A stretch of DNA of 42,799 nucleotides from Bacilli bacterium (GCA_034176765.1 JAXFTN010000141.1:1-42799), one strand, 5' to 3'. Counted from the stretch's first letter, positions 52 through 36,236 are shown. Program-made: numbers and translations. The notes: generated from the letters alone by a model not told the origin.

Positions 52-864
52 TTATAAGATTTTTAATTCTTCTTTTTGTTCGACTTCTTTTATGAATTCA
101 AGAATGACTTTTAAAGGAATAGCATAATTCATAACAAGAGCATCGTTACTTCCACTAGTAACCATACCAAGTAGTTCTCCATTTTCATTAAATACAGGAC
201 CACCCGAATTACCATTTGTGACTAAAGCAGTAATCATCATATATTCATGGCCACTAATTTCACGCACATTATCAGCTACAATTCCATCAAGAATTGCTAG
301 GCCTTTTCCTTTACTATTTCCAATTGTATATACCTTTTCACCAGTAACACAATCGCCACTTGCAAATGAACAAGATTTATAATTGCTCTCATAAGCAAAA
401 TGTAAAATACATATATCAAGTTCTTTTGAAGCAAATACAAATTCTAATTCATATAATGTATCACTATCATTAAATTTAGCAAATACATTTTCGCATAAAG
501 TAGTATTTTCAGGATCATCTTTATCAAAAACAATATGTGCATTTGTGATTACATAATTTGAATTAATTATAAATCCAGTACCAGTAGAAGCCTTATTAGC
601 AAAATTACAATAAATTGCAACTACACTATCAATGTTATCTTTAAATATATCTTTAGCATCTTTTTTATTAGTTGCACTAGATATATTAGAAGTTTCTACT
701 CTAGATTTTTGAATATATTTATTCCTTTTAGATAAAGAAGAGAAAGTTTCATTACAAGAACTACATACATATGAATAAACAGTATCCTCTTCAACATTTT
801 CTTTAGAAATAACTTTAATATTTTTTGATCCACATATTGGACAAATATCATATATGAATTCCAT
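52..864 (-). CDS. Zinc-ribbon-fused trypsin-like (S1, Trypsin_2-type) serine protease
   Basis: N-terminal four-Cys ribbon CPICGS...CSSCN. Catalytic-triad contexts TNAHIV (His), LDICILH (Asp), GNSGGPVF (Ser). Start moved to ATG 864 (MEFIYD) because GAGGTG lies 6 nt upstream; the ORF-track GTG at 873 sits inside that SD. Follows the TIR gene stop by 12 nt. Confidence 0.8.
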   Translation of the reverse strand: MEFIYDICPICGSKNIKVISKENVEEDTVYSYVCSSCNETFSSLSKRNKYIQKSRVETSNISSATNKKDAKDIFKDNIDSVVAIYCNFANKASTGTGFIINSNYVITNAHIVFDKDDPENTTLCENVFAKFNDSDTLYELEFVFASKELDICILHFAYESNYKSCSFASGDCVTGEKVYTIGNSKGKGLAILDGIVADNVREISGHEYMMITALVTNGNSGGPVFNENGELLGMVTSGSNDALVMNYAIPLKVILEFIKEVEQKEELKIL

Positions 865-876
865 TTTAAACACCTC

Positions 877-3447
877 TTATTTTTTAGGTGAATACTCTTC
901 TACCAAGTGATCAAAGTACTCATATTTATTTTTATAAACAGCTAATTCTTGAAGTAATTTCTTTTCTTTTCTTCTTAAGTTAGCATATTTATTAAACATT
1001 GATTTAGAAGTAATCTTATTACCAATAAATATAAATAGGCGTAAGATAAATACAAAATCAAAGAATGCAGCGATACCTAAGAAAACTTTTCCCAATATTT
1101 CTTGTGCCATATTTGGAGAATGTAAGAAATCTTTAAAGATAAAGAATAGTACATTAAATAAAACTACAAAGAAAAGAAGTGCTTTTGGGAATGTATTTGT
1201 TTTTGACTTTTTATTAGCTTTATTGAACCTTTTCTCACATTTTTTCATTTCTGAATGTATTGAATTTTGAGTGGAGTAAACACTAAGAATATTATCTCTT
1301 TCTTGTTTAAATTCCATATCTTCTTCATGATATTTACGTTGTTTTTTAACAATATCCATAAAGAATTTTGTTTGTTCATCATCAGCATGATTTAACATAG
1401 GAATATACTCATCAAATGATAAAATATCACGTGAATATATTAGTTCCTTTTCATTTTTAACTTCACATTTCGCCATAATTATATAGTAATAAAATGTAGC
1501 TTCTGTAGAGTCAATAGAAGACAATAATTCAAATAAATATTTAGCTGCAGAGAATTTTCCTGTTTCTAAATAAATATTACCTTTTTTAAATATTTCACTA
1601 CTGAAACACTTAATATTTTCAGGATAAAATTTTAATAATTCTGTATAAAAATCTAAATTTAAAGAATCATACGGAATCGCTTTTAAAATTGCTTCAATTT
1701 CTTGTTTTTGTTGATCTTGATTTTGATATTTTAATAAATCTTTTAAACTCTCATAAGTTTTCAATTTATCAATATTAGCATCATATTCAACTAAAGAAGG
1801 ATCAAGAGTTGAACAAGTTGCAATTCTAATTAATGCTCGACGAGCAACATTATTTCCTTCGTCAACACTAATTAATGTATTTGCAATCTCACTTGCCTTA
1901 GAGAAATTACCGCTTGTTACTTCATGAGATAATAATTTAGTTAACCAATAAATATATTTATCAATGTCATCAATTGAAATAATTTTTACTAATATTTCGA
2001 ATAAAGTAAAATCATAATATTCGATAGCTTTTTGTATAAATTGTTCTAAGTAGTCATTTCTTTTACTATATTCATAGACAAAGATTATATCACATAACTT
2101 GTAAGCTTTTTGAGCATTTGCACCAAGAGGATTTTCTAATAATCTTTGGAAAAATTTATAAAATGTTTCAATAATTAAAAGGGCATAATTTTCACTGCAA
2201 TGACGCAATGCTTGTTCGATGAGTTCTAAATCAGTAACTTTTTGTAAATTCATTGTTAATACTGCATCAAGACCTTTTAACTTATTGATACATAAGAATT
2301 TTCTAAAAATAGCATCTCCATCAAGTGGCTCATTTTCTAGAATTTTATTAATGTGGTCAAGTCCTAAATCAAAGACGCCATTATCAATAAATTTATCTGC
2401 AATATTTAATTTTTCATTAACTGTATAAGATTTGCCTTCAATTGCTTCAGCTCCAATAATACGATTTGAAACATCATGCTCACTGCTTAATTTAGTAGCT
2501 TTCTTTCCAATCTCTTGTTCAATTACAGCTTTCTTTAATCCCTTTTTTCCACTAGGAGTATTTTTCAATACACTAGATACATAAGATTCAAGTGAATCCA
2601 TCCAAGTGATATTACTTACATCAATTGCTTGTAATGATTTTAAAGGATTAGGTAGTGTTCCAGGATTCAATCCTTTATATAAAAGAATTAATGAATTACT
2701 TGCTTTTTCTTTATTTACAATTCTTCTTGCAAATCTGGACCATTCATTTTTGACCCACGTTGAAGTAATATATTCTTCTTTAGAACCATAAATGATCATA
2801 ATTTTTGCTGTATTTAAGGCATTAAAAATATATGGTTCATATTTTTCACCATAACAATTCAAAGAAATTCGCGAAAAGAAAACATTATAACCTTTTGACT
2901 TTAAAAAATGATAAACTTCTTGAGCTTCATAACTATCACGTGTTCTTTCAATACCATTTTCAGTTTCGGTATCTTTATAAGAAATGAAAATATCATATGG
3001 TGGAAGCTTTGAAGCTTTCTCGACCCATTCAATACGATTCTTTTCAATTATTTCAGCTTGTTTTTCATAATAATCTTTTTCGTCTTTACTACCATAACGT
3101 AAAGCTAATTTATAGTTCTTATCTTCATATAATGAAGCATAACTTGTTGCATAACATGTAGGAATTTTCTTTCCATCATAATCGGTCTCATATTTGATAC
3201 CATATTTAGAAAGTAATAATCCCCAATAATTACGAGATGAATGTGGGTATTTAACAACTATATCTGAAAATAAATTTTCAGCTTCTTCAAAATTACATAA
3301 TCTTAATGCTTGAGAAGCATTGTAATAAAGGGTGTCTTCTTCATTTGATAATTCTTCTGGTTTATAGGCACCACATGCTTCACATACCCATTTCCCATTT
3401 TTATATACATATGTACCACCACATATATTACAAATATTTTTGTCCAT
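877..3447 (-). CDS. Zinc-ribbon / TIR domain / long helical-repeat protein with C-terminal membrane hairpin
   Basis: N-terminal CNICGG...CEACG ribbon followed by TPR-like helices. The central segment YDIFISYKDTE...NVFFSRISL...IMIIYGS...STWVKNEWSRF matches the TIR (TIR_2) strand-helix pattern, including a conserved Glu. A helical region of more than 400 aa follows. Two hydrophobic helices lie near the C-terminus (ALLFFVVLFNVLFFIF and VFLGIAAFFDFVFILRLFIFIG). GGGGGTG SD upstream. Confidence 0.8.
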   Translation of the reverse strand: MDKNICNICGGTYVYKNGKWVCEACGAYKPEELSNEEDTLYYNASQALRLCNFEEAENLFSDIVVKYPHSSRNYWGLLLSKYGIKYETDYDGKKIPTCYATSYASLYEDKNYKLALRYGSKDEKDYYEKQAEIIEKNRIEWVEKASKLPPYDIFISYKDTETENGIERTRDSYEAQEVYHFLKSKGYNVFFSRISLNCYGEKYEPYIFNALNTAKIMIIYGSKEEYITSTWVKNEWSRFARRIVNKEKASNSLILLYKGLNPGTLPNPLKSLQAIDVSNITWMDSLESYVSSVLKNTPSGKKGLKKAVIEQEIGKKATKLSSEHDVSNRIIGAEAIEGKSYTVNEKLNIADKFIDNGVFDLGLDHINKILENEPLDGDAIFRKFLCINKLKGLDAVLTMNLQKVTDLELIEQALRHCSENYALLIIETFYKFFQRLLENPLGANAQKAYKLCDIIFVYEYSKRNDYLEQFIQKAIEYYDFTLFEILVKIISIDDIDKYIYWLTKLLSHEVTSGNFSKASEIANTLISVDEGNNVARRALIRIATCSTLDPSLVEYDANIDKLKTYESLKDLLKYQNQDQQKQEIEAILKAIPYDSLNLDFYTELLKFYPENIKCFSSEIFKKGNIYLETGKFSAAKYLFELLSSIDSTEATFYYYIIMAKCEVKNEKELIYSRDILSFDEYIPMLNHADDEQTKFFMDIVKKQRKYHEEDMEFKQERDNILSVYSTQNSIHSEMKKCEKRFNKANKKSKTNTFPKALLFFVVLFNVLFFIFKDFLHSPNMAQEILGKVFLGIAAFFDFVFILRLFIFIGNKITSKSMFNKYANLRRKEKKLLQELAVYKNKYEYFDHLVEEYSPKK

Positions 3448-3460
3448 ACCTACACACCCC

Positions 3461-4597
3461 CTACATCAAACCATTTTTATAAAGTTCAAATTTTTCTAAA
3501 TCTTCTTTCGAAGTTTTTGGTTTATTTTTTGCAATAATTACATCACAATCATTTTGTGAAATTAATACTTCTTTTCCAGACTTAACTGATTTTTTATATG
3601 CCTCAGCACGAATCTTGTCACACATTGAAACTATATCGCCACCATTGTATCCTTCAGTTTTTTGTGCTAATAGATTAAAATCAAAATTTTCAGTTAAAGG
3701 AACGCCTTTCATAGCTTTTTTTATCATAAATAAACGTGCTTCAAAATCTGGTAAACCCACATATATATGTGTATCAAATCGACCACCACGGCACATTGCA
3801 GGATCTAAAGCCCATGGTCTATTAGTAGCACCAATTAATAGTAACATTTTACAAGTTTTAGATTTTTTAAATCCATCAACTTTTGTTAAAAATGTTGCAA
3901 CAAATCGAGCCATTTCAGCGTCAACTCCACCAGTTGAATCTTCTCTTTTTGATGCGACTGCATCCATTTCGTCAAAGAAAATAATAGCTCTTTCATTCTT
4001 TTGAGCCTCTTCAAAAAGTGCATCTAATTGTTTAGAACTTTCACCCATATATTTTGAAATTAAATCAGAACATTTTATTGAATAAAATTTTGCATCAACT
4101 TCACCAGCAATTGCTCGTGCAATAAATGTCTTACCAGTACCTGGTGGGCCATATAAAATGATTTTACCACCAGCCTTAATGTTATATTTTTTTGCTAATT
4201 CTGGATTTTTTAAAGGTTCAATTACATTATAAATAATTTGATCTTTTACATCTTGTAAACCTGCAACATCATTAAATGTAACTTTATCTTCTTTAGGAAT
4301 TTCAATAGCTTGAAATGTTTTTTCTTCCTCTTCAGAATCTCCTTTTTGTTTATTAGTTATATTTTTAACTGGACGTTTTTTTACACAGTTTTCTCTAACA
4401 AAAACAAGAATTTTTTCCGCTACTTTATGATATTCAGTTCTTACATCATAACTAGTTGCATCAATTGAAATTTTATTTGCTAATTCGGCTGCTTTTAAAA
4501 AGGCACTTCTAGCACTTTCAATGTCACCTTTAGCAAAATACTCTTTGCCTTGTTGATAAAAACTTTTATACGCCTCTACTACTGATCCATTATTCAT
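3461..4597 (-). CDS. Vps4-like AAA+ ATPase with N-terminal MIT/TPR-like three-helix domain
   Basis: Walker A ILYGPPGTGKT, Walker B IIFFDEMDA, second region of homology GATNRPWALDPAMCRGGRFD. SDLISKYMGES and the PW motif resemble the Vps4/katanin/spastin clade. The first ~75 aa (AYKSFYQQGKEYFAKGDIESARSAFLKAAELANK...EYHKVAEKILVFV) look like an MIT-type helical bundle. GGAGG SD. Confidence 0.8.
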   Translation of the reverse strand: MNNGSVVEAYKSFYQQGKEYFAKGDIESARSAFLKAAELANKISIDATSYDVRTEYHKVAEKILVFVRENCVKKRPVKNITNKQKGDSEEEEKTFQAIEIPKEDKVTFNDVAGLQDVKDQIIYNVIEPLKNPELAKKYNIKAGGKIILYGPPGTGKTFIARAIAGEVDAKFYSIKCSDLISKYMGESSKQLDALFEEAQKNERAIIFFDEMDAVASKREDSTGGVDAEMARFVATFLTKVDGFKKSKTCKMLLLIGATNRPWALDPAMCRGGRFDTHIYVGLPDFEARLFMIKKAMKGVPLTENFDFNLLAQKTEGYNGGDIVSMCDKIRAEAYKKSVKSGKEVLISQNDCDVIIAKNKPKTSKEDLEKFELYKNGLM

Positions 4598-4619
4598 AGA
4601 GAACCTCCACTAGTAATAA

Positions 4620-5210
4620 TTATAATAATTTATTTTTTTCTGCTTCGATTTCTTTTGTTAAATCAATGTCACTTACTTTTGGCATTGAAGCATTTTGTCC
4701 TGTTAATTTAGCTCTAGCTGCATCAATCATTGGACGTACAGAAGCAATTTCAGCTTGAGAGCGTACTCTATTAGCTGGGTTAGATGATTTCATAACACTT
4801 CCCATTGCTTTTTGAGATATTTTAATTTGTCTCATATATTTAGCAATTTTTACATTTGCTCTTTGAATTTTTGCAATATTTGGCATCTTATTTTTATTGT
4901 TTGCCATGTTATTTAATGCATTTACAGCCATAGCCATATTTGTTGCAATTGAATTAGATACATTAATGATATCAAAATTTGCTTTTGTTTGAGTTAAACT
5001 AGAAATAACATCATTTAATTCCATCAATGCACTTAAAGCAACGTCATAACTTCCTTGGTCTCCATTAACTTCAGCCTCAGCAGCAATATGTGCATATTCT
5101 TGTCTTTTTGCTTTTAATTCGTTGATTTGATCATTGAAAATTTGCATTTGCTCATCACGTTGCATTTGAGCCATGATTTCTTTTTCTGCTTTTGTCTTAA
5201 AAAATGCCAT
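4620..5210 (-). CDS. ESCRT-III (Snf7/CHMP)-like helical protein
   Basis: 196 aa, all-helical by composition, with a basic N-terminus MAFFKTKAEK and a long heptad hairpin region. The Met/Asn/Ala-rich segment AMAVNALNNMANNKNKMPNIAKIQRANVKIAKYM resembles the CHMP alpha3-alpha4 region. Acidic amphipathic C-terminus DIDLTKEIEAEKNKLL. The ATG overlaps the upstream stop (TAATG). Confidence 0.6.
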   Translation of the reverse strand: MAFFKTKAEKEIMAQMQRDEQMQIFNDQINELKAKRQEYAHIAAEAEVNGDQGSYDVALSALMELNDVISSLTQTKANFDIINVSNSIATNMAMAVNALNNMANNKNKMPNIAKIQRANVKIAKYMRQIKISQKAMGSVMKSSNPANRVRSQAEIASVRPMIDAARAKLTGQNASMPKVSDIDLTKEIEAEKNKLL

Positions 5211-6223
5211 TATTTTGTACCCCCGACTTCTAATTCTTCACTAGCATCAATTCCTGAATCCATTTCTTTTTGATTACTTTTCAATTCTTCTTTTTCTTTT
5301 TTCTTACGAAGAAGTTGTTCTTTATAAGCTAAAGCATCTTGAGAAACAGATATTGTTGATGTGTTAACTCCAAATACTTTTTCATCCATATTTTTTGTTC
5401 TTTCAGCAATTAATTGAGTATCTTTTTCCATTCTCTTTAAAATAGATATAGCTTTCTCAGGCTCAGAAATAACTGATTTTAATCTAGACATATTTAGAAG
5501 CGCTCTTGCTTTTCCTAAATCTTCTAACGAATAATCACTTTCTACTACAATCTCATTAGCATTGCTATAAATTAAATCTAATAAATTAAAGCAAGCTGAA
5601 TAATTAGCTTTTCTAACATTGAGCATATCTAATTTACTCTTTAAAGAAGATATCTTACGATATAATTCATTAATACGACGTTCATTCTCTTCTTTTAGCA
5701 TTAAACTATCTAATTCGTTTAAATCTTTTTCTAATGAATAAATATCTTTTTCTAATCTTTGTTCATTCGCTACAAATTGATTTTTAATAGTTGCTAATTC
5801 ATCAAGTCTATTTTGTAATTTCTTTCTAGACCATGTCATTTTTTCTTTTTCGGTAGTACCAATTTCTTCACTATTCATATCACCTTGGAGTACAGATTTC
5901 CAAACATCAACTGAATAAGTAAGATTTGATACACCTTCTTCAAGTCTAGTTACTAAATCTTGATTAGCTAATTCATTTAATTCAACGACTTGTTTTGAAA
6001 CTGTTTCAGCAATACTTGAAATATCTTCTTTACCAGTTCCTACACAATTATCAAGTCCTGAAATGGCATCTTTTAATTCTACAGCTAATGCATCGACTGC
6101 ATCTTTATCTAAATAACTATTTACTTTATGAGTTTCAAGTTTAAAACATACTTTCTTTAAATCTTTTAATGCTTTGTCTTTAAGAGCATTATTATTTTTA
6201 ATTGATGGACTATATTTTTTCAT
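5210..6223 (-). CDS. 337-aa coiled-coil protein, possible second ESCRT-III/PspA-superfamily subunit or adaptor
   Basis: Long heptad-rich helices (KLQNRLDELATIKNQFVANEQRLEKDIYSLEKDLNELDSL...INELYRKISSLKSKLDMLNVRKANY) and an acidic C-terminal tail DSGIDASEELEVGG. GGAGGA SD. Its stop overlaps the next start. Confidence 0.6.
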   Translation of the reverse strand: MKKYSPSIKNNNALKDKALKDLKKVCFKLETHKVNSYLDKDAVDALAVELKDAISGLDNCVGTGKEDISSIAETVSKQVVELNELANQDLVTRLEEGVSNLTYSVDVWKSVLQGDMNSEEIGTTEKEKMTWSRKKLQNRLDELATIKNQFVANEQRLEKDIYSLEKDLNELDSLMLKEENERRINELYRKISSLKSKLDMLNVRKANYSACFNLLDLIYSNANEIVVESDYSLEDLGKARALLNMSRLKSVISEPEKAISILKRMEKDTQLIAERTKNMDEKVFGVNTSTISVSQDALAYKEQLLRKKKEKEELKSNQKEMDSGIDASEELEVGGTK

Positions 6224-6237
6224 ACATTATTCCTCCA

Positions 6238-6891
6238 TTAAGCTACTTTGCTTCTAATTCTTTCAAGATCATCACTATTAATATGAATACCTTCAACTGT
6301 TAAAGAATTTAATTTAAGACCCATTGACTTAAATGATTTTTCTTCACATAAAGAGCTGAACAATCTTTCTTGTAATTCCTTTGCTTTTAAAGTTGCATTG
6401 AAGACTGAAACTTCTTTATCAACTAAAAGATTATTTAATATAGGAGCACCCACTGATTTAATTACTGAGATTGTCTTTTCTCTTAAATCATCAATAGTAA
6501 CAACATTGAATCCAGAATATGCGGCAATCAATCGACCAAAATCTTCAATTTCGAGAGCGTATTTTCCATTTGCTCCAGCTTTATACAATTCATTTTGATG
6601 ATCGTTTTTGATTTCAATATTTCCAAATCCCCATGCAAGTAAAGGTAAAGAATTAATTAATATAAAACATACTTTGACATTTTGCCCTAATAAATCTTTT
6701 CCATATTCTTTTAATAAGTTAATATGATTACAATTATCAACTCTGAAACTTAATTTTTCATTAATATATACGAAACCTTTATAACCATTAGGAACTGTAA
6801 GAAAAACGCTTTTATCAATTTTAGCAGAAGGTGAAAATTGAACAACACAATCAGTTAAATAACTACTAGGTGCCAATTCATTTGTTTTCAT
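6238..6891 (-). CDS. Divergent SPFH/Band-7-like protein (YdjI-type fold, no zinc ribbons)
   Basis: Colinear block similarity by eye to the two YdjI-like proteins in this window. LTVPNGYKGFVYINEKL matches LVVREGQRAIFINKGKL. VKVCFILINS...WGFG matches ADIYFIQTK...WKTP. GANGKYALEIEDFG matches EAEGKFSFKVTEPS. MGLKLNSLTVEGIHIN matches LGLDVCGLYIENIVLP. GGGGGA SD. Confidence 0.6.
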   Translation of the reverse strand: MKTNELAPSSYLTDCVVQFSPSAKIDKSVFLTVPNGYKGFVYINEKLSFRVDNCNHINLLKEYGKDLLGQNVKVCFILINSLPLLAWGFGNIEIKNDHQNELYKAGANGKYALEIEDFGRLIAAYSGFNVVTIDDLREKTISVIKSVGAPILNNLLVDKEVSVFNATLKAKELQERLFSSLCEEKSFKSMGLKLNSLTVEGIHINSDDLERIRSKVA

Positions 6892-6906
6892 TTGTCATAA
6901 TCCCCC

Positions 6907-7254
6907 TTATTTCTTTTCAATAATTTCGCAAAGTTGATTTAATGTTGCTTCACTAAGATCATCTTTAGTCAAAGCAAAAATTAATTTCTTTTGCGTTTCA
7001 CTTAGTTCAGATAAATCAACTTTTACAGAATCCGAAGTAGCAGCAATTGCATCACGTAATGACTTGACTTCTTTTTCCGTTAAATCATAATTTTTGCAAA
7101 CAATGGCATCAAAATTCTTTGGAACATTTCGTTTGCCATTTTCAATAGCAGATAAATAAGAAGAAGATAATTCTAGTTTCTCAGCCATTGTTCTCATACT
7201 GTCTCCAGAATTAATACGAATAATTCGAAGAACTTTACCTAATTGAGTAATCAT
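6907..7254 (-). CDS. XRE-family helix-turn-helix transcriptional regulator, first gene of the operon
   Basis: LGKVLRIIRINSGDSMRTMAEKLELSSSYLSAIENGKRNVP is a classic XRE/Cro-C1 HTH. GAGGGGG SD. Promoter immediately upstream. Confidence 0.85.
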   Translation of the reverse strand: MITQLGKVLRIIRINSGDSMRTMAEKLELSSSYLSAIENGKRNVPKNFDAIVCKNYDLTEKEVKSLRDAIAATSDSVKVDLSELSETQKKLIFALTKDDLSEATLNQLCEIIEKK

Positions 7255-7283: not shown

Positions 7284-7312
7284 ATTATACCAACATTTAA
7301 ATTGATTGTCTA
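7284..7312 (-). promoter_or_regulatory. Sigma-A-like promoter of the seven-gene operon
   Basis: On the minus strand: TAGACA (7312-7307), a 17-nt spacer, then TGgTATAAT extended -10 (TATAAT at 7289-7284), about 30 nt upstream of the XRE ATG. Confidence 0.55.
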
Positions 7313-9263: not shown

Positions 9264-9354
9264 TGGCGGAGCAAGAGAGACTCGAACTCTCGCACCAGTT
9301 ACCCGATCTACTTCCTTAGCAGGGAAGCCCCTTCACCAACTTGGGTATTGCTCC
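9264..9354 (-). tRNA. tRNA-Ser (anticodon GCU), encoded CCA
   Basis: The reverse complement reads GGAGCAATACCCAAGTTGGTGAAGGGGCTTCCCTGCTAAGGAAG...GGTGCGAGAGTTCGAGTCTCTCTTGCTCCGCCA. 7-bp acceptor stem, CTTCC/GGAAG anticodon stem with loop CTGCTAA, long variable arm, GTTCGAGTC T-loop. Confidence 0.9.
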
Positions 9355-10982: not shown

Positions 10983-12728
10983 TTATTTCTTAATTAAATT
11001 ATTAATTTTTGATAAATTTGGTGGAATAATAATCTCACGCGGTTCACCAAATAATTTACCACCAACTATACGAATATTGTTTTCATATATAACTTTAAAA
11101 TCTGATTTTGTATCAACACCAACTGAAATAATTGGCTTATTATAAATTTCTAATTTATTTAAAATAGCTCTAAATGAACTTGAAGTCTCAACAGCTTCTC
11201 GTGAAACATTAATGTGCTTAGTAAACAAGAAATAATCAAATAATTGATATAATTCCCTAGTCCAAGGAAAATCACGGTCTTTAATACGTAAACATAATTC
11301 GTAGTTTTTAGTTTTGAAAACTTCTAATAGTTTAAAAGCTCTATCAATATCTTTTTCAACAATTTCGTTGAGTACTGATTCACTTATAACGAAAACTAAA
11401 TTACATTCATCTAAATGCTTTACTTCACTTAGTGTATTAAATATTGAATCAATATCAAATTTTGATAGTTGTATGAACAACTTTTGAGGACATTTACCTT
11501 TTCTATTTTGAAAAACCTTTACAAAAGTTGAATAATAAATACCAATTAATCTTTTGACGACAACATTAGATAACTCATTAACCAAGCCATGTTCATGAGC
11601 AGCTTCAAACATGTCATTTAAACTTTTAAATTTTGTTGAATAAGCAACTGTTTTTGTATAAAAGCCAAATAAAGAACAAGTGTCAGCATCAATTAGTGGT
11701 AAATACAAAGATTCAATTTTCTTTTCTCTATTATTACCTTCAATCAGTTGAAGAAGTTCGTGTTTTTCAACTAATGATTTTTCAATCGAGTCATCATTAA
11801 CTTTGTTATACCATTCAACTTTGTTATTATTTTCATTATGAAAATAAGTTAAATTTTTAATTTCTTCTAAACAGTCAATAGGATCTTTAAAAAATTCATT
11901 TTGGGCTACACCAATGAAAAAATCAAATACAGATGAATAACCAGATAATTCAAGACGAGCCTGTAATTTCCTACTAAGATTATTTAAAATAGTTTTGTAT
12001 TCTTCTAATGATTCATCGGTATAATCAATTATTCCAAAACCATTTTTGTCATCTTCTCCAAGATTCAATCTTTGTCTTAAGTTTGATTCTCCTGTAAAAG
12101 CAATACAAATAGTCTTTAAATCATTAATTATAATATTAGCTTTTTCTTGTATAACTTCTCTATCTAAAGGAAAAATTCTAATATATATCATATAGCCATC
12201 AGCTCTATGTTTTCTTAAATATGCAGTACCAATAGAAATACCACTACTATTATTAACAAAATGTGACATACCTTTTGAATAAGAAATTGGATAACCCACT
12301 AAATGAAGAATTGAGTTTGAAGATTTCATTTCTTCAACAAAATAAAAAGAAATGAATTCATCTTCTCCTACTAAAATATCAATTTCAGAATTAAGTGATT
12401 TATTAATCCCATTATTTAAATCAGATAAATAAATCTTAAACATTCCCAATTTACGCGGGTCTGGAATTTTTTTATAGAAATCTTTAAAAGAGTATTTTTC
12501 AATTTTACTAGCGTTATATCTTTTAAAATAAGTTACTTGTTTTTTATTAAAATCAAAAATAAATTCATAAATGTTTTTGTTACGTTTATTAATTTCATTT
12601 GCACGAGTTTTATTTAAGAAAAAAGAATGAATTACGCCTAAAATGCAAGCAATGCAAAAAAAGCCAATAACTACAATAGAAATTGTCGTTAAAATATCGC
12701 TAACATCCATTGAAAACACTGTAAGCAT
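10983..12728 (-). CDS. Membrane-anchored protein with degenerate GGDEF-like and EAL-like domains
   Basis: N-terminal TM helix. [14 protein letters not shown] sits where RxGGDEF is expected. EAL-like blocks have substituted catalytic positions: [21 protein letters not shown] (YTK in place of EAL), [16 protein letters not shown] (in place of DDFGTG), [12 protein letters not shown]...VGGKLFGEP (in place of AEGVET...QG). Confidence 0.55.
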
Positions 12729-16194: not shown

Positions 16195-16285
16195 GGAGAA
16201 ATACTCAAGTGGTTGAAGAGACTAGTTTCGAAAACTAGCAGGAGGTGCAAGCCTCGCGAGGGTTCAAATCCCTCTTTCTCCGCCA
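16195..16285 (+). tRNA. tRNA-Ser (anticodon CGA), encoded CCA
   Basis: GGAGAAATACTCAAGTGGTTGAAGAGACTAGTTTCGAAAACTAG...GAGGGTTCAAATCCCTCTTTCTCCGCCA. CTAGT/ACTAG anticodon stem with loop TTCGAAA. Long variable arm. Confidence 0.9.
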
Positions 16286-36145: not shown

Positions 36146-36236
36146 GGAGAAATACCCAAGAGGCTGAAGGGGCTGGCTTGGAAAGCTAGTAGATGGGTAA
36201 CACTATGCGAGGGTTCGAATCCCTCTTTCTCCGCCA
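36146..36236 (+). tRNA. tRNA-Ser (anticodon GGA), encoded CCA
   Basis: GGAGAAATACCCAAGAGGCTGAAGGGGCTGGCTTGGAAAGCTAG...GAGGGTTCGAATCCCTCTTTCTCCGCCA. Anticodon loop TTGGAAA. Long variable arm. Confidence 0.9.

Follow-up and report, generated by a model that had tools for sequence, protein, structure and literature searches.

Do bacteria possess a pairing of the ESCRT-III/Vps4 type, with a Snf7-like subunit and a dedicated AAA ATPase that carries an MIT-like domain? The question is raised by two neighbouring genes in a 42,799-nucleotide stretch of DNA from a Bacilli bacterium (GCA_034176765.1 JAXFTN010000141.1:1-42799; hereafter the window). The genes lie on the minus strand, 22 nt apart, and encode a 196-residue protein (p196) and a 378-residue ATPase (AAA378). 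A preliminary description had read them as a bacterial ESCRT-III/Vps4 pair. Both open reading frames (ORFs) exist as described (Table 1), every motif string that it quoted was located in the two proteins, and the gene pair is real and conserved; what was missed is the wider context, as the pair belongs to a cluster of seven genes, among them genes for SPFH, coiled-coil, TIR and protease proteins. Here we report that p196 belongs, as a divergent member, to the Snf7 branch of the ESCRT-III superfamily and that the linkage between the p196 and ATPase families extends over all of their known diversity. The computational analyses favour an ESCRT-III/Vps4-like membrane-remodelling module as the best account of the cluster, a reading that we hold with moderate confidence. 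The cluster probably serves membrane remodelling in a stress response or in defence.

Kinship of p196 with the Snf7 family

Direct scans of p196 returned no family in Pfam, in NCBIfam or in a single-sequence search of the PDB. The relationship was identified with a profile of the p196 family, built from an alignment (A2) of 25 diverse members reaching down to 20% identity. The sole significant PDB match of this profile is CdvB of Saccharolobus islandicus (9s9j, E = 1.6e-4), in which profile positions 19-104 align to CdvB residues 31-116 and the conserved GD of the hairpin loop falls on the GD of CdvB. No PspA or Vipp1 chain was matched at E≤10. Alignment of the p196 family against a Snf7-family alignment with hhalign gave a probability of 69-71% (P ~4e-5, score ~39) over 144-147 columns that span helices 1-5. 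In this alignment KMPNIAKIQ (p196 residues 108-116) stands opposite the KLPQIQKI segment of CHMP2A, which bears out a likeness to the CHMP2-type LPQIQKI that had been suggested by eye.

The Snf7 reference set comprised CHMP2A orthologues, CHMP3, CHMP4B, CHMP1B and CdvB fragments, each returned by a database or confirmed by exact look-up. A reference search started from an 86-aa CdvB fragment yielded four proteins, a shallow alignment and a weak hhalign score, and one started from a mixed ESCRT-III alignment yielded CHMP2A orthologues only, and thus low diversity. Controls were run with an earlier reference alignment, for which the real score of 29.4 compares with 14.2 ± 2.3 (maximum 21.3) for block-shuffled alignments, none of 100 reaching the real value, and with 14.3 for the reversed alignment. 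The p196 family scored 13.6 against E. coli PspA, which is background. The reverse test gave the same family: when a hidden Markov model (HMM) built from Snf7 proteins only was searched against 1,908 ORFs (all ORFs of 38 related loci plus distant family members), the top 25 hits were all p196 relatives, as were 39 of the top 40, with a best E-value of 3e-5.

The AlphaFold2 (AF2) model of p196 has a mean pLDDT of 72, rising to 82-91 over the hairpin. Helices are predicted at residues 7-49 and 52-103 (the long hairpin), 112-142 and 152-169, followed by a low-confidence linker (172-184) and a C-terminal helix (184-195). The modelled order corresponds to that of ESCRT-III helices 1-5 with an added tail helix. 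The CdvB2 filament and CHMP2A-CHMP3 lead the Foldseek matches to the PDB, which also include Vipp1, CdvB, CHMP3 and Asgard ESCRT-IIIB. Profile matches, hhalign, the reverse HMM and model topology thus agree with the earlier assignment of the protein to Snf7-type ESCRT-III. Membership of the PspA/IM30/Vipp1 branch was considered and rejected, as neither p196 nor other family members match Pfam PspA_IM30 and the hhalign score against PspA is at background. A marginal match of p196 to the PADLOC model PD-T4-2_B was judged to be due to chance.

The p196 hairpin is acidic, and helices 4 and 5 are basic, helix 4 strongly so (+8). Between these two helices lies an NPA motif (residues 144-146) that is kept in at least 90% of a diverse family alignment. 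The first seven residues, MAFFKTK, are a candidate membrane anchor. The other end of the protein is an acidic stretch, DIDLTKEIEAEKNKLL (residues 181-196), which contains the C-terminal helix.

The partner ATPase and its link to p196

Single-sequence AF2 modelling of AAA378 residues 1-78 predicts a three-helix bundle (pLDDT 88.6, pTM 0.77) with helices at 3-22, 26-46 and 50-72. MIT domains account for more than 20 of the 50 best Foldseek matches of this domain in the PDB, among them those of katanin p60 (5lb7, 6gzc, 5ow5), NRBF2, VPS4A, VPS4B/SKD1, MITD1, calpain-7, yeast Vps4 and spartin. TM-scores are 0.78-0.83 for MITD1 (the top value being 0.83) and reach 0.77-0.80 for the MIT domain of the S. 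solfataricus Vps4-like protein, alone or bound to ESCRT-III (2v6y, 2w2u). The E-values are 0.05-0.7, a weakness that we attribute to the small size of the domain. A profile of orthologous N-domains also matches consensus-TPR designs.

The motor is a single classical AAA cassette with a mixed set of motifs. The pore loop SKYMGES and the NRPW motif fit the patterns K-(W/Y)-x-G-E and NxPW, as in Vps4 and katanin. The segment GATNRPWALDPA lies at residues 256-267. The second region of homology reads CRGGRFDTHIY, in which RGGRFD is as in Cdc48, PAN and FtsH; the corresponding segment of CdvC is LRRFQKRIY, of the Vps4/CdvC type RRFxKR. NCBIfam models score AAA378 at 222 (CDC48), 218 (PAN), 207 (FtsH) and 183.7 bits (CdvC), all far below their cut-offs (650 for CdvC). 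The SpoVK/CbbX-like model EccA gives 40 bits, against ~200 for the classical-clade models. Past the lid, Pfam Vps4_C matches below its threshold, with 16.6 bits where 21.3 are required (E = 0.008). The alignment to the CdvC model extends as far as the C-terminus of that model (27.6 bits), and CDC48 D2 scores higher, at 35.8 bits.

ATPases of two families accompany p196 genes: type 1, the window ATPase and its orthologues, and type 2, a second family in related loci with 40% identity to AAA378. Both were placed in a tree made by neighbour-joining only (28 sequences, 273 trimmed columns, 300 bootstraps). Its references were yeast Vps4, VPS4B, katanin p60, spastin, Msp1, ATAD1, p97 D1 and D2, PAN, PSMC5, E. 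coli FtsH and three crenarchaeal CdvC/Vps4 proteins, with sequences confirmed by exact look-up or taken from PDB alignments. Types 1 and 2 form a clade of their own (99% bootstrap), apart from all references. Grouping with Vps4/CdvC received 1%, with FtsH 2%, with PAN 0% and with p97 D1 27%; in this neighbour-joining tree the clade attaches somewhere between the meiotic clade and the p97/PAN/FtsH group. Identity to every reference is 31-38%. The 1% bootstrap, the separate lineage and RGGRFD in place of RRFxKR are at odds with the earlier placement of AAA378 in the Vps4/katanin/spastin clade. The mixed motifs together with the tree indicate that the motor is neither a Vps4 orthologue nor of the SpoVK/CbbX or FtsH type, the latter two having been set aside on the EccA score and the FtsH bootstrap. 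As placed by these comparisons, the AAA378 motor represents a distinct bacterial lineage of classical AAA ATPases with Vps4-like architecture, and not a Vps4/CdvC orthologue.

The linkage of the two families is seen across the related loci (designated here by L and a number). SPFH and cc337 genes precede p196 in all 25 loci with enough upstream sequence, and the helix-turn-helix (HTH) gene is present in 19 of these. Among the 28 loci that have at least 5 kb of sequence downstream of p196, 23 contain a type-1 or type-2 ATPase gene, which directly adjoins p196 in only nine, and 12 contain a protease gene. Both ATPase types are present in L027. Type-2 ATPases (406-483 aa) directly follow p196 and have a long acidic or proline-rich linker after the N-domain. 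Their second region of homology reads RPGRFGTRIY, NKPW is kept, and pore loop 1 is degenerate (LGGxGNS in place of SKYMGE), with loss of the aromatic residue. The type-1 and type-2 N-domains are homologous by hhalign (25.3, against 11.8 ± 2.3 for shuffled alignments).

Distant p196 relatives (21-36% identity) still adjoin an AAA ATPase gene (Table 1), and in four of five divergent loci (L046, L041, L044 and L042) the N-terminus of the partner ATPase is matched by the type-1 N-domain HMM. In one of these the motor is a different one: the ATPase at L042:4688-5839 is of the SpoVK/EccA/CbbX type (290 bits to the SpoVK model), and its N-terminus matches the N-domain HMM with E = 7e-5. Judged by these matches, the constant companion of p196-like genes is the N-terminal three-helix domain and not a particular motor, as expected if this domain is an adaptor that recognises the p196 system. 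In L043 (positions 3212-7007), the p196-like gene lies between those of two different AAA ATPases (421 and 411 aa), after which comes a RuvB-like AAA protein; an ORF of 193 aa upstream of the ATPases is not detectably p196-like. A neighbourhood conserved across the whole family sustains the earlier view of p196 and the ATPase as a functional pair.

If the N-domain is an adaptor, the C-terminal helix of p196 is a candidate for the ATPase-recruiting, MIM-like (MIT-interacting motif-like) tail. The tail is conserved across the family and is the same in loci with a type-1 ATPase, a type-2 ATPase or no ATPase nearby; co-variation of the tail with ATPase type was looked for and none was seen.

A number of observations weigh against the reading of the pair as ESCRT-III and Vps4-like. 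Window p196 has no Pfam Snf7 (PF03357) match at E≤1, and, of the 55 families listed for 25 members of the p196 family, the 25 with the most matches do not include PF03357. The Foldseek E-values of p196 are all above 0.1, although such values are often seen with extended helical proteins. Charge is distributed in p196 in the opposite way to CHMP proteins: the net charge is -6 over residues 1-100 and +12 over the remainder, compared with +8 to +14 and -11 to -23 in CHMP2A, CHMP3, CHMP4B and CHMP1B. Membrane binding and autoinhibition may therefore work differently. The basic N-terminus of the preliminary description is limited to slight basicity in the first seven residues. MIM1 motifs have the consensus (D/E)xxLxxRLxxL(K/R), and MIM2 motifs are proline-rich. 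Compared by eye with what we take to be the MIM1 pattern, the p196 tail D-I-D-L-T-K-E-I-E-A-E-K fits at the initial D, L4, the hydrophobic position 8 and K12, and does not fit at R7 and L11. In the AAA378 N-domain Pfam found TPR-like matches only and no MIT, the NCBIfam CdvC model has no match to the isolated domain, and a small MIT HMM fails to pick N-domains from the ORFs of the loci. The hhalign score of the N-domain against a small alignment of verified MIT domains (21.2) is not significant (shuffles 12.3 ± 3.7, maximum 27.9). With no MIT signal at the sequence level, "MIT-like" is a statement about fold and architecture and not demonstrated homology; the three TPR/MIT-like helices proposed earlier for the ATPase N-terminus agree with the modelled fold. 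Five loci lack an AAA gene within 8 kb, and most loci have the TIR gene between p196 and an ATPase gene that abuts the protease. The lost pore-loop aromatic of type-2 ATPases is hard to reconcile with threading.

One alternative is that the resemblance arose by chance, p196 being an unrelated helical hairpin or coiled coil, the N-domain a generic TPR-like bundle, and the pair foreign to ESCRT-III/Vps4 biology. The lack of Pfam Snf7 and MIT matches, the weak Foldseek E-values and the matches of the N-domain sequence to consensus TPR proteins would fit this. So would a HMMER profile search of 1.84 billion representative proteins, which returned 46 clusters, all of the p196 family, and no bridge to Snf7 or PspA. 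We nevertheless consider chance very improbable, since three independent profile tests lead to the Snf7 family in one register and above shuffle and reversal controls, MIT domains dominate the structural matches of the N-domain, and the neighbouring coiled-coil protein cc337, an internal control, does not score significantly. cc337 itself was considered as a second ESCRT-III/PspA-like subunit and rejected (hhalign ~21 against ESCRT-III, not significant; not picked by the Snf7 HMM).

The wider cluster and its hosts

The seven genes of the cluster (Table 1) are separated by gaps that range from a one-base overlap to 22 nt. The best promoter-like site of the region precedes the HTH gene and is the likely operon promoter; it is a consensus match only, and such sites are no more frequent in the region than in shuffled sequence. 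No terminator-like site was found on the minus strand within the cluster. The tight gaps, the placement of the promoter-like site and the lack of an internal terminator-like site fit a single operon.

Table 1. Coordinates and properties of the cluster genes, of elements within them and of related loci.
Feature	Coordinates	Strand	Description
Seven-gene cluster	52-7254	minus	HTH115, SPFH217, cc337, p196, AAA378, TIR_TPR_TM856, protease273
Promoter-like site, best of region	7284..7312	minus	TAGACA, 17 nt, TG-TATAAT (extended -10); 11/12 consensus positions; 30 nt upstream of HTH gene
HTH115	6907..7254	minus	XRE-family regulator, first cluster gene; HTH_31, HTH_19, HTH_3
SPFH217	6238..6891	minus	Band_7_1-type SPFH/Band-7 protein; PF13421 E=5.6e-6, above gathering score
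cc337	5210..6223	minus	337 aa, helical, coiled-coil by composition; immediately upstream of p196, stop overlaps p196 start
p196	4620..5210	minus	Snf7-type ESCRT-III-like protein, 196 aa; family profile, hhalign, reverse HMM, AF2 model
p196 N-terminus, MAFFKTK	5190..5210	minus	Like hydrophobic-basic N-termini of CHMP2A (MDLLFGRRK) and CHMP3 (MGLFGKTQEK)
p196 C-terminal helix, residues 184-196	4623..4661	minus	LTKEIEAEKNKLL; family consensus ~AEIEAEKNKII; modelled helical after low-confidence linker
AAA378	3461..4597	minus	378-aa ATPase; MIT-like domain, linker, one classical AAA cassette, lid, C-terminal helix
AAA378 N-domain, residues 1-72	4382..4597	minus	Three helices, MIT-like by fold
AAA domain, residues 146-282	3752..4162	minus	PF00004, Pfam E=3.8e-40
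Walker A, residues 150-157	4127-4150	minus	GPPGTGKT
Pore loop 1	within 4037-4069	minus	SKYMGE, in SDLISKYMGES (residues 177-187)
Walker B, residues 205-212	3962-3985	minus	IIFFDEMD
GATNRPW and RGGRFD	3773-3832	minus	
AAA378 C-terminal segment past lid, residues 345-378	3464..3565	minus	Ends SKEDLEKFELYKNGLM; weakly like Vps4 C-terminal helix
TIR_TPR_TM856	877..3447	minus	856 aa; zinc ribbon, TIR, TPR-like repeats, two C-terminal transmembrane helices
protease273	52..873	minus	Zinc ribbon and trypsin-like (HtrA/S1-type) serine protease; Trypsin_2 E=2e-23; no predicted transmembrane helix
Type-2 ATPase, example	L019:8587-9867		Immediately after p196; likewise in eight other loci
Divergent loci L046/L047			HTH, SPFH, coiled-coil, p196-like, AAA (378), two trypsin-like proteases; TIR gene absent
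Divergent locus L041			p196-like, then AAA, then protease
Divergent locus L044			HTH gene, then p196-like, then AAA
Divergent locus L043			Protease, zinc-ribbon SPFH-like protein, AAA genes on both sides of p196-like gene
Divergent locus L042			Sel1-trypsin protease, then p196-like (26% identity), then AAA

The cluster proteins are named in databases only as "hypothetical protein" or "ATP-binding protein", and the TIR membrane protein is the only one with predicted transmembrane helices. The SPFH protein belongs to Band_7_1, the Pfam family that we believe to include B. subtilis YdjI. Many loci encode a version two to four times as long (447-855 aa instead of 217, e.g., L013:4428-6995 and L002:1366-2898), in which additional sequence without a family match surrounds the Band_7_1 domain. 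No Pfam, NCBIfam or PDB match was found for cc337.

The TIR protein has CxxC motifs at residues 6 and 22, a TIR domain at 153-279 (TIR_2, E = 4.4e-11) and transmembrane helices within 757-802. A W-x-x-N-E-W motif (WVKNEW, residues 231-236) is conserved among its orthologues and resembles what we take to be the SxWCxxEL motif that bears the catalytic glutamate of NADase TIR domains. Past the TIR-TPR part the orthologues diverge widely. In some, one transmembrane helix precedes up to ~1,300 further residues (L019:9886-16269, L022:4724-10951, L012:8607-14330 and L028:2750-8071), and the C-terminal region of the L019 protein, which was scanned, contains LRR_5, Listeria-Bacteroides (Flg_new) and GLUG repeats. 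As these are typical surface-protein modules, the long orthologues have a receptor-like topology, with the TIR domain inside and a repeat sensor outside, reminiscent of Toll-like receptors in reversed orientation. The window protein has only two transmembrane helices and no ectodomain.

The position of the protease gene bears on a second alternative, regulated proteolysis, in which AAA378 would act mainly as the unfoldase of the adjacent protease, its MIT-like domain would select p196 or another cluster protein, and the system would act as an on/off switch with no membrane remodelling. In most related loci that have both genes the protease lies immediately downstream of the type-1 ATPase, and proteases also stand beside p196-like and AAA genes in the divergent loci L041, L042, L043 and L046. 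The architecture recalls IetAS, a two-component AAA-protease system, in that a classical-clade AAA ATPase is accompanied by a downstream serine protease; PADLOC IetA models match AAA378 (1.4e-44), as does the NCBIfam model "IteA anti-phage ATPase" (127.5 bits). This score lies well below the cut-off of 510 and also under those of CDC48, PAN and FtsH. IetS is subtilisin-type (S8), whereas the cluster protease is a Trypsin_2 (S1) protein with a zinc ribbon, and we reject membership of IetAS for these reasons. To our knowledge, trypsin-fold proteases do not dock on AAA rings, and we know of no ESCRT-III-like, SPFH or TIR partners of IetAS. Furthermore, in type-2 loci the ATPase directly follows p196 and no protease gene was found. 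Proteolysis as the main role of the ATPase appears quite improbable.

Defence-type genes were identified within or beside the cluster in three loci: an AbiH gene directly after p196 (L023:4919-5860, E = 1e-51), a weakly PIN_12-like gene (L037:5110-6114) and a DUF2971 gene (L020:6906-7787). In these loci the ATPase gene is displaced or none is nearby.

The exact p196 sequence was found on 405 contigs, and the protein has 654 database relatives. Orthologues (56-98% identity, with conserved synteny) occur in 38 of 185,579 species-representative genomes. All 38 carriers are metagenome-assembled genomes (MAGs) from gut or digester samples, labelled mostly as Clostridia (including Christensenellales and Oscillospiraceae) and Bacilli/Acholeplasmatales. 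Two MAGs with labels outside the Bacillota, Elusimicrobiaceae (L002) and Bacteroidaceae (L011), encode p196 proteins 74-78% identical to that of the window, which points to either horizontal transfer or mis-binned contigs. A phage, plasmid or viral origin of the p196 family was considered and rejected, as there were no matches in phage, plasmid or viral-contig collections. In the window, which has a low G+C content (~27%), the neighbours of the cluster are housekeeping genes (asparaginase, BioY and prolyl-tRNA synthetase), and the L003 cluster is likewise near housekeeping genes. The window also has three tRNA-Ser genes (9264-9354, 16195-16285 and 36146-36236; anticodons GCT, CGA and GGA), one of which lies between BioY and prolyl-tRNA synthetase, near the cluster, and a 581-aa ORF with an N-terminal hydrophobic segment (10983-12728), just past prolyl-tRNA synthetase.

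A third alternative is a TIR-centred anti-phage or conflict system, in which the TIR protein (an NADase or signal generator) and the protease would be the active parts, p196, SPFH and cc337 mere scaffold and the ATPase a regulatory chaperone, with no ESCRT-like remodelling. It draws on the W-x-x-N-E-W motif, present in most TIR orthologues, on their highly variable, sensor-like C-termini, on the inserted AbiH, PIN-like and DUF2971 genes, on the patchy distribution, and on matches of protease273 to the PADLOC models RT-Protease_XI and Avs1b. Other evidence makes it unlikely in our view. The TIR gene is absent from the complete divergent loci L046 and L047, which keep the rest of the module. Within the cluster, conservation is highest for p196 (56-98% identity, against 27-56% for the TIR protein), whereas a passive scaffold would not be expected to be so well conserved. 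None of the PADLOC models represents p196, cc337 or the SPFH protein. The lack of mobile-element matches and the housekeeping surroundings in the window and L003 also speak against this alternative. The proteolysis and TIR-centred explanations overlap with the ESCRT-III/Vps4-like account more than they exclude it.

Comparison with known systems and a proposed mode of action

As in CdvB-CdvC and CHMP-VPS4, the putative polymer subunit is a five-helix Snf7-type protein with a flexible tail that ends in a short conserved helix, and the p196 and ATPase genes are linked in one operon. AAA378 is close in size to CdvC (378 and 367 aa). Yeast and human Vps4 are ~60 residues longer owing to the beta-domain, for which AAA378 has no room by its length. 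Unlike Vps4 and CdvC, the motor forms its own lineage (99% bootstrap), with 183.7 bits against the 650 required by the CdvC model and RGGRFD for RRFxKR, and its MIT likeness is at the level of fold only. Unlike in CHMPs, the charge polarity of p196 is inverted, and its tail has no obvious proline-rich segment of the MIM2 type that we take CdvB to use. The partners also differ from those of Cdv/ESCRT systems (SPFH, coiled-coil, TIR, protease and HTH proteins), the host is a bacterium (Bacillota), and no CdvA or ESCRT-I/II component was found among the cluster genes examined.

A parallel within the Bacillota is the ydjFGHI Psp module of B. subtilis, which combines ESCRT-III-superfamily, SPFH/Band-7 and zinc-ribbon proteins, one of them membrane-anchored (PMC8581546, PMC11237479), and in which PspA is reported to need the SPFH protein YdjI for its placement at the membrane (PMC11188069, PMC8581546). 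The cluster differs from this module in that its ESCRT-III-like protein is Snf7-like without PspA similarity and in its additional MIT-like AAA ATPase, TIR protein and trypsin-like protease; no homologue of the TPM-domain protein YdjH was seen in the cluster.

The view that Snf7 proteins with a dedicated Vps4 are solely archaeal and eukaryotic, taken in the preliminary description, is too strong, as sporadic Vps4-like and Snf7-like genes have been described from bacteria of other phyla (Ravi et al. 2024; PMC11237479, section 18 and supplementary text 2.2). The same paper reports bacterial MIT plus AAA ATPases beside a large TPR protein with transmembrane helices, with snf7 displaced by a TPR-6TM protein, links some bacterial PspA/Snf7 homologues to AAA+ ATPases, and proposes ATP-dependent membrane remodelling (PMC11237479). 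Compared by description only, those Snf7-linked ATPases have two AAA domains and a membrane-anchored Snf7, whereas here a soluble Snf7-like protein accompanies a single-cassette MIT-like AAA ATPase, and the pair occurs with SPFH, coiled-coil, TIR and protease genes in Bacillota. We found no account of this Bacillota cluster in searches of the literature.

By analogy with ESCRT-III/Vps4 and YdjI-PspA, SPFH217 and cc337 would bring p196 to the cytoplasmic side of the membrane, and p196 would polymerise there. The MIT-like domain of a hexameric ATPase may then capture the C-terminal helix of p196 on its flexible linker, and the ATPase would thread p196 through the aromatic pore loop, so that the polymer is disassembled or remodelled. 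Turnover of p196 could in this way drive membrane remodelling or repair. The TIR membrane protein, whose orthologues carry variable extracellular LRR and Listeria-Bacteroides repeats, may for that reason be the sensor or signalling arm and, with the protease, could tie the module to an envelope-stress or anti-phage response. All functional claims made here are computational, and polymerisation, the tail-MIT contact, ATP-driven disassembly and the biological trigger are the parts of this account that we infer.

What would such a system add to the present picture? According to a 2025 review, a Vps4-like ATPase "appears absent in bacteria", so that PspA and Vipp1 of bacteria must be regulated otherwise (PMC7619361), and a comparative-genomics survey of archaeal ESCRT proteins found ESCRT components not identifiable in bacteria (PMC11188069). 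New here is a Snf7-type subunit that is co-inherited with a dedicated MIT-like AAA ATPase in a compact Bacillota system; this co-inheritance, and the occurrence of the same adaptor domain on two different AAA motors, may surprise specialists. A bolder claim, which we advance tentatively, is that gut Bacillota have a true machine of the ESCRT-III/Vps4 type. In it, an MIT-AAA ATPase would take apart a polymer of Snf7-like subunits, and the MIT-like adaptor of this ATPase would have originated, or been kept, independently of the motor of archaeal Vps4. The machine would be connected to a protease and to a transmembrane TIR protein with a receptor-like layout. The proteins look suited to reconstitution because they are small and, except for the TIR protein, have no predicted transmembrane helix. 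Questions that become testable include the age of the ESCRT-III/AAA partnership, how recognition of tails by MIT domains evolves on different motors (as in the SpoVK-type fusion), and the coupling of membrane remodelling to TIR-based sensing in bacteria. If the bolder claim is true, the ESCRT-III/MIT-AAA partnership would be older than the archaeal lineage or would have evolved twice, and these Bacillota would have a bacterial counterpart of the ESCRT-dependent membrane repair of eukaryotic innate immunity.

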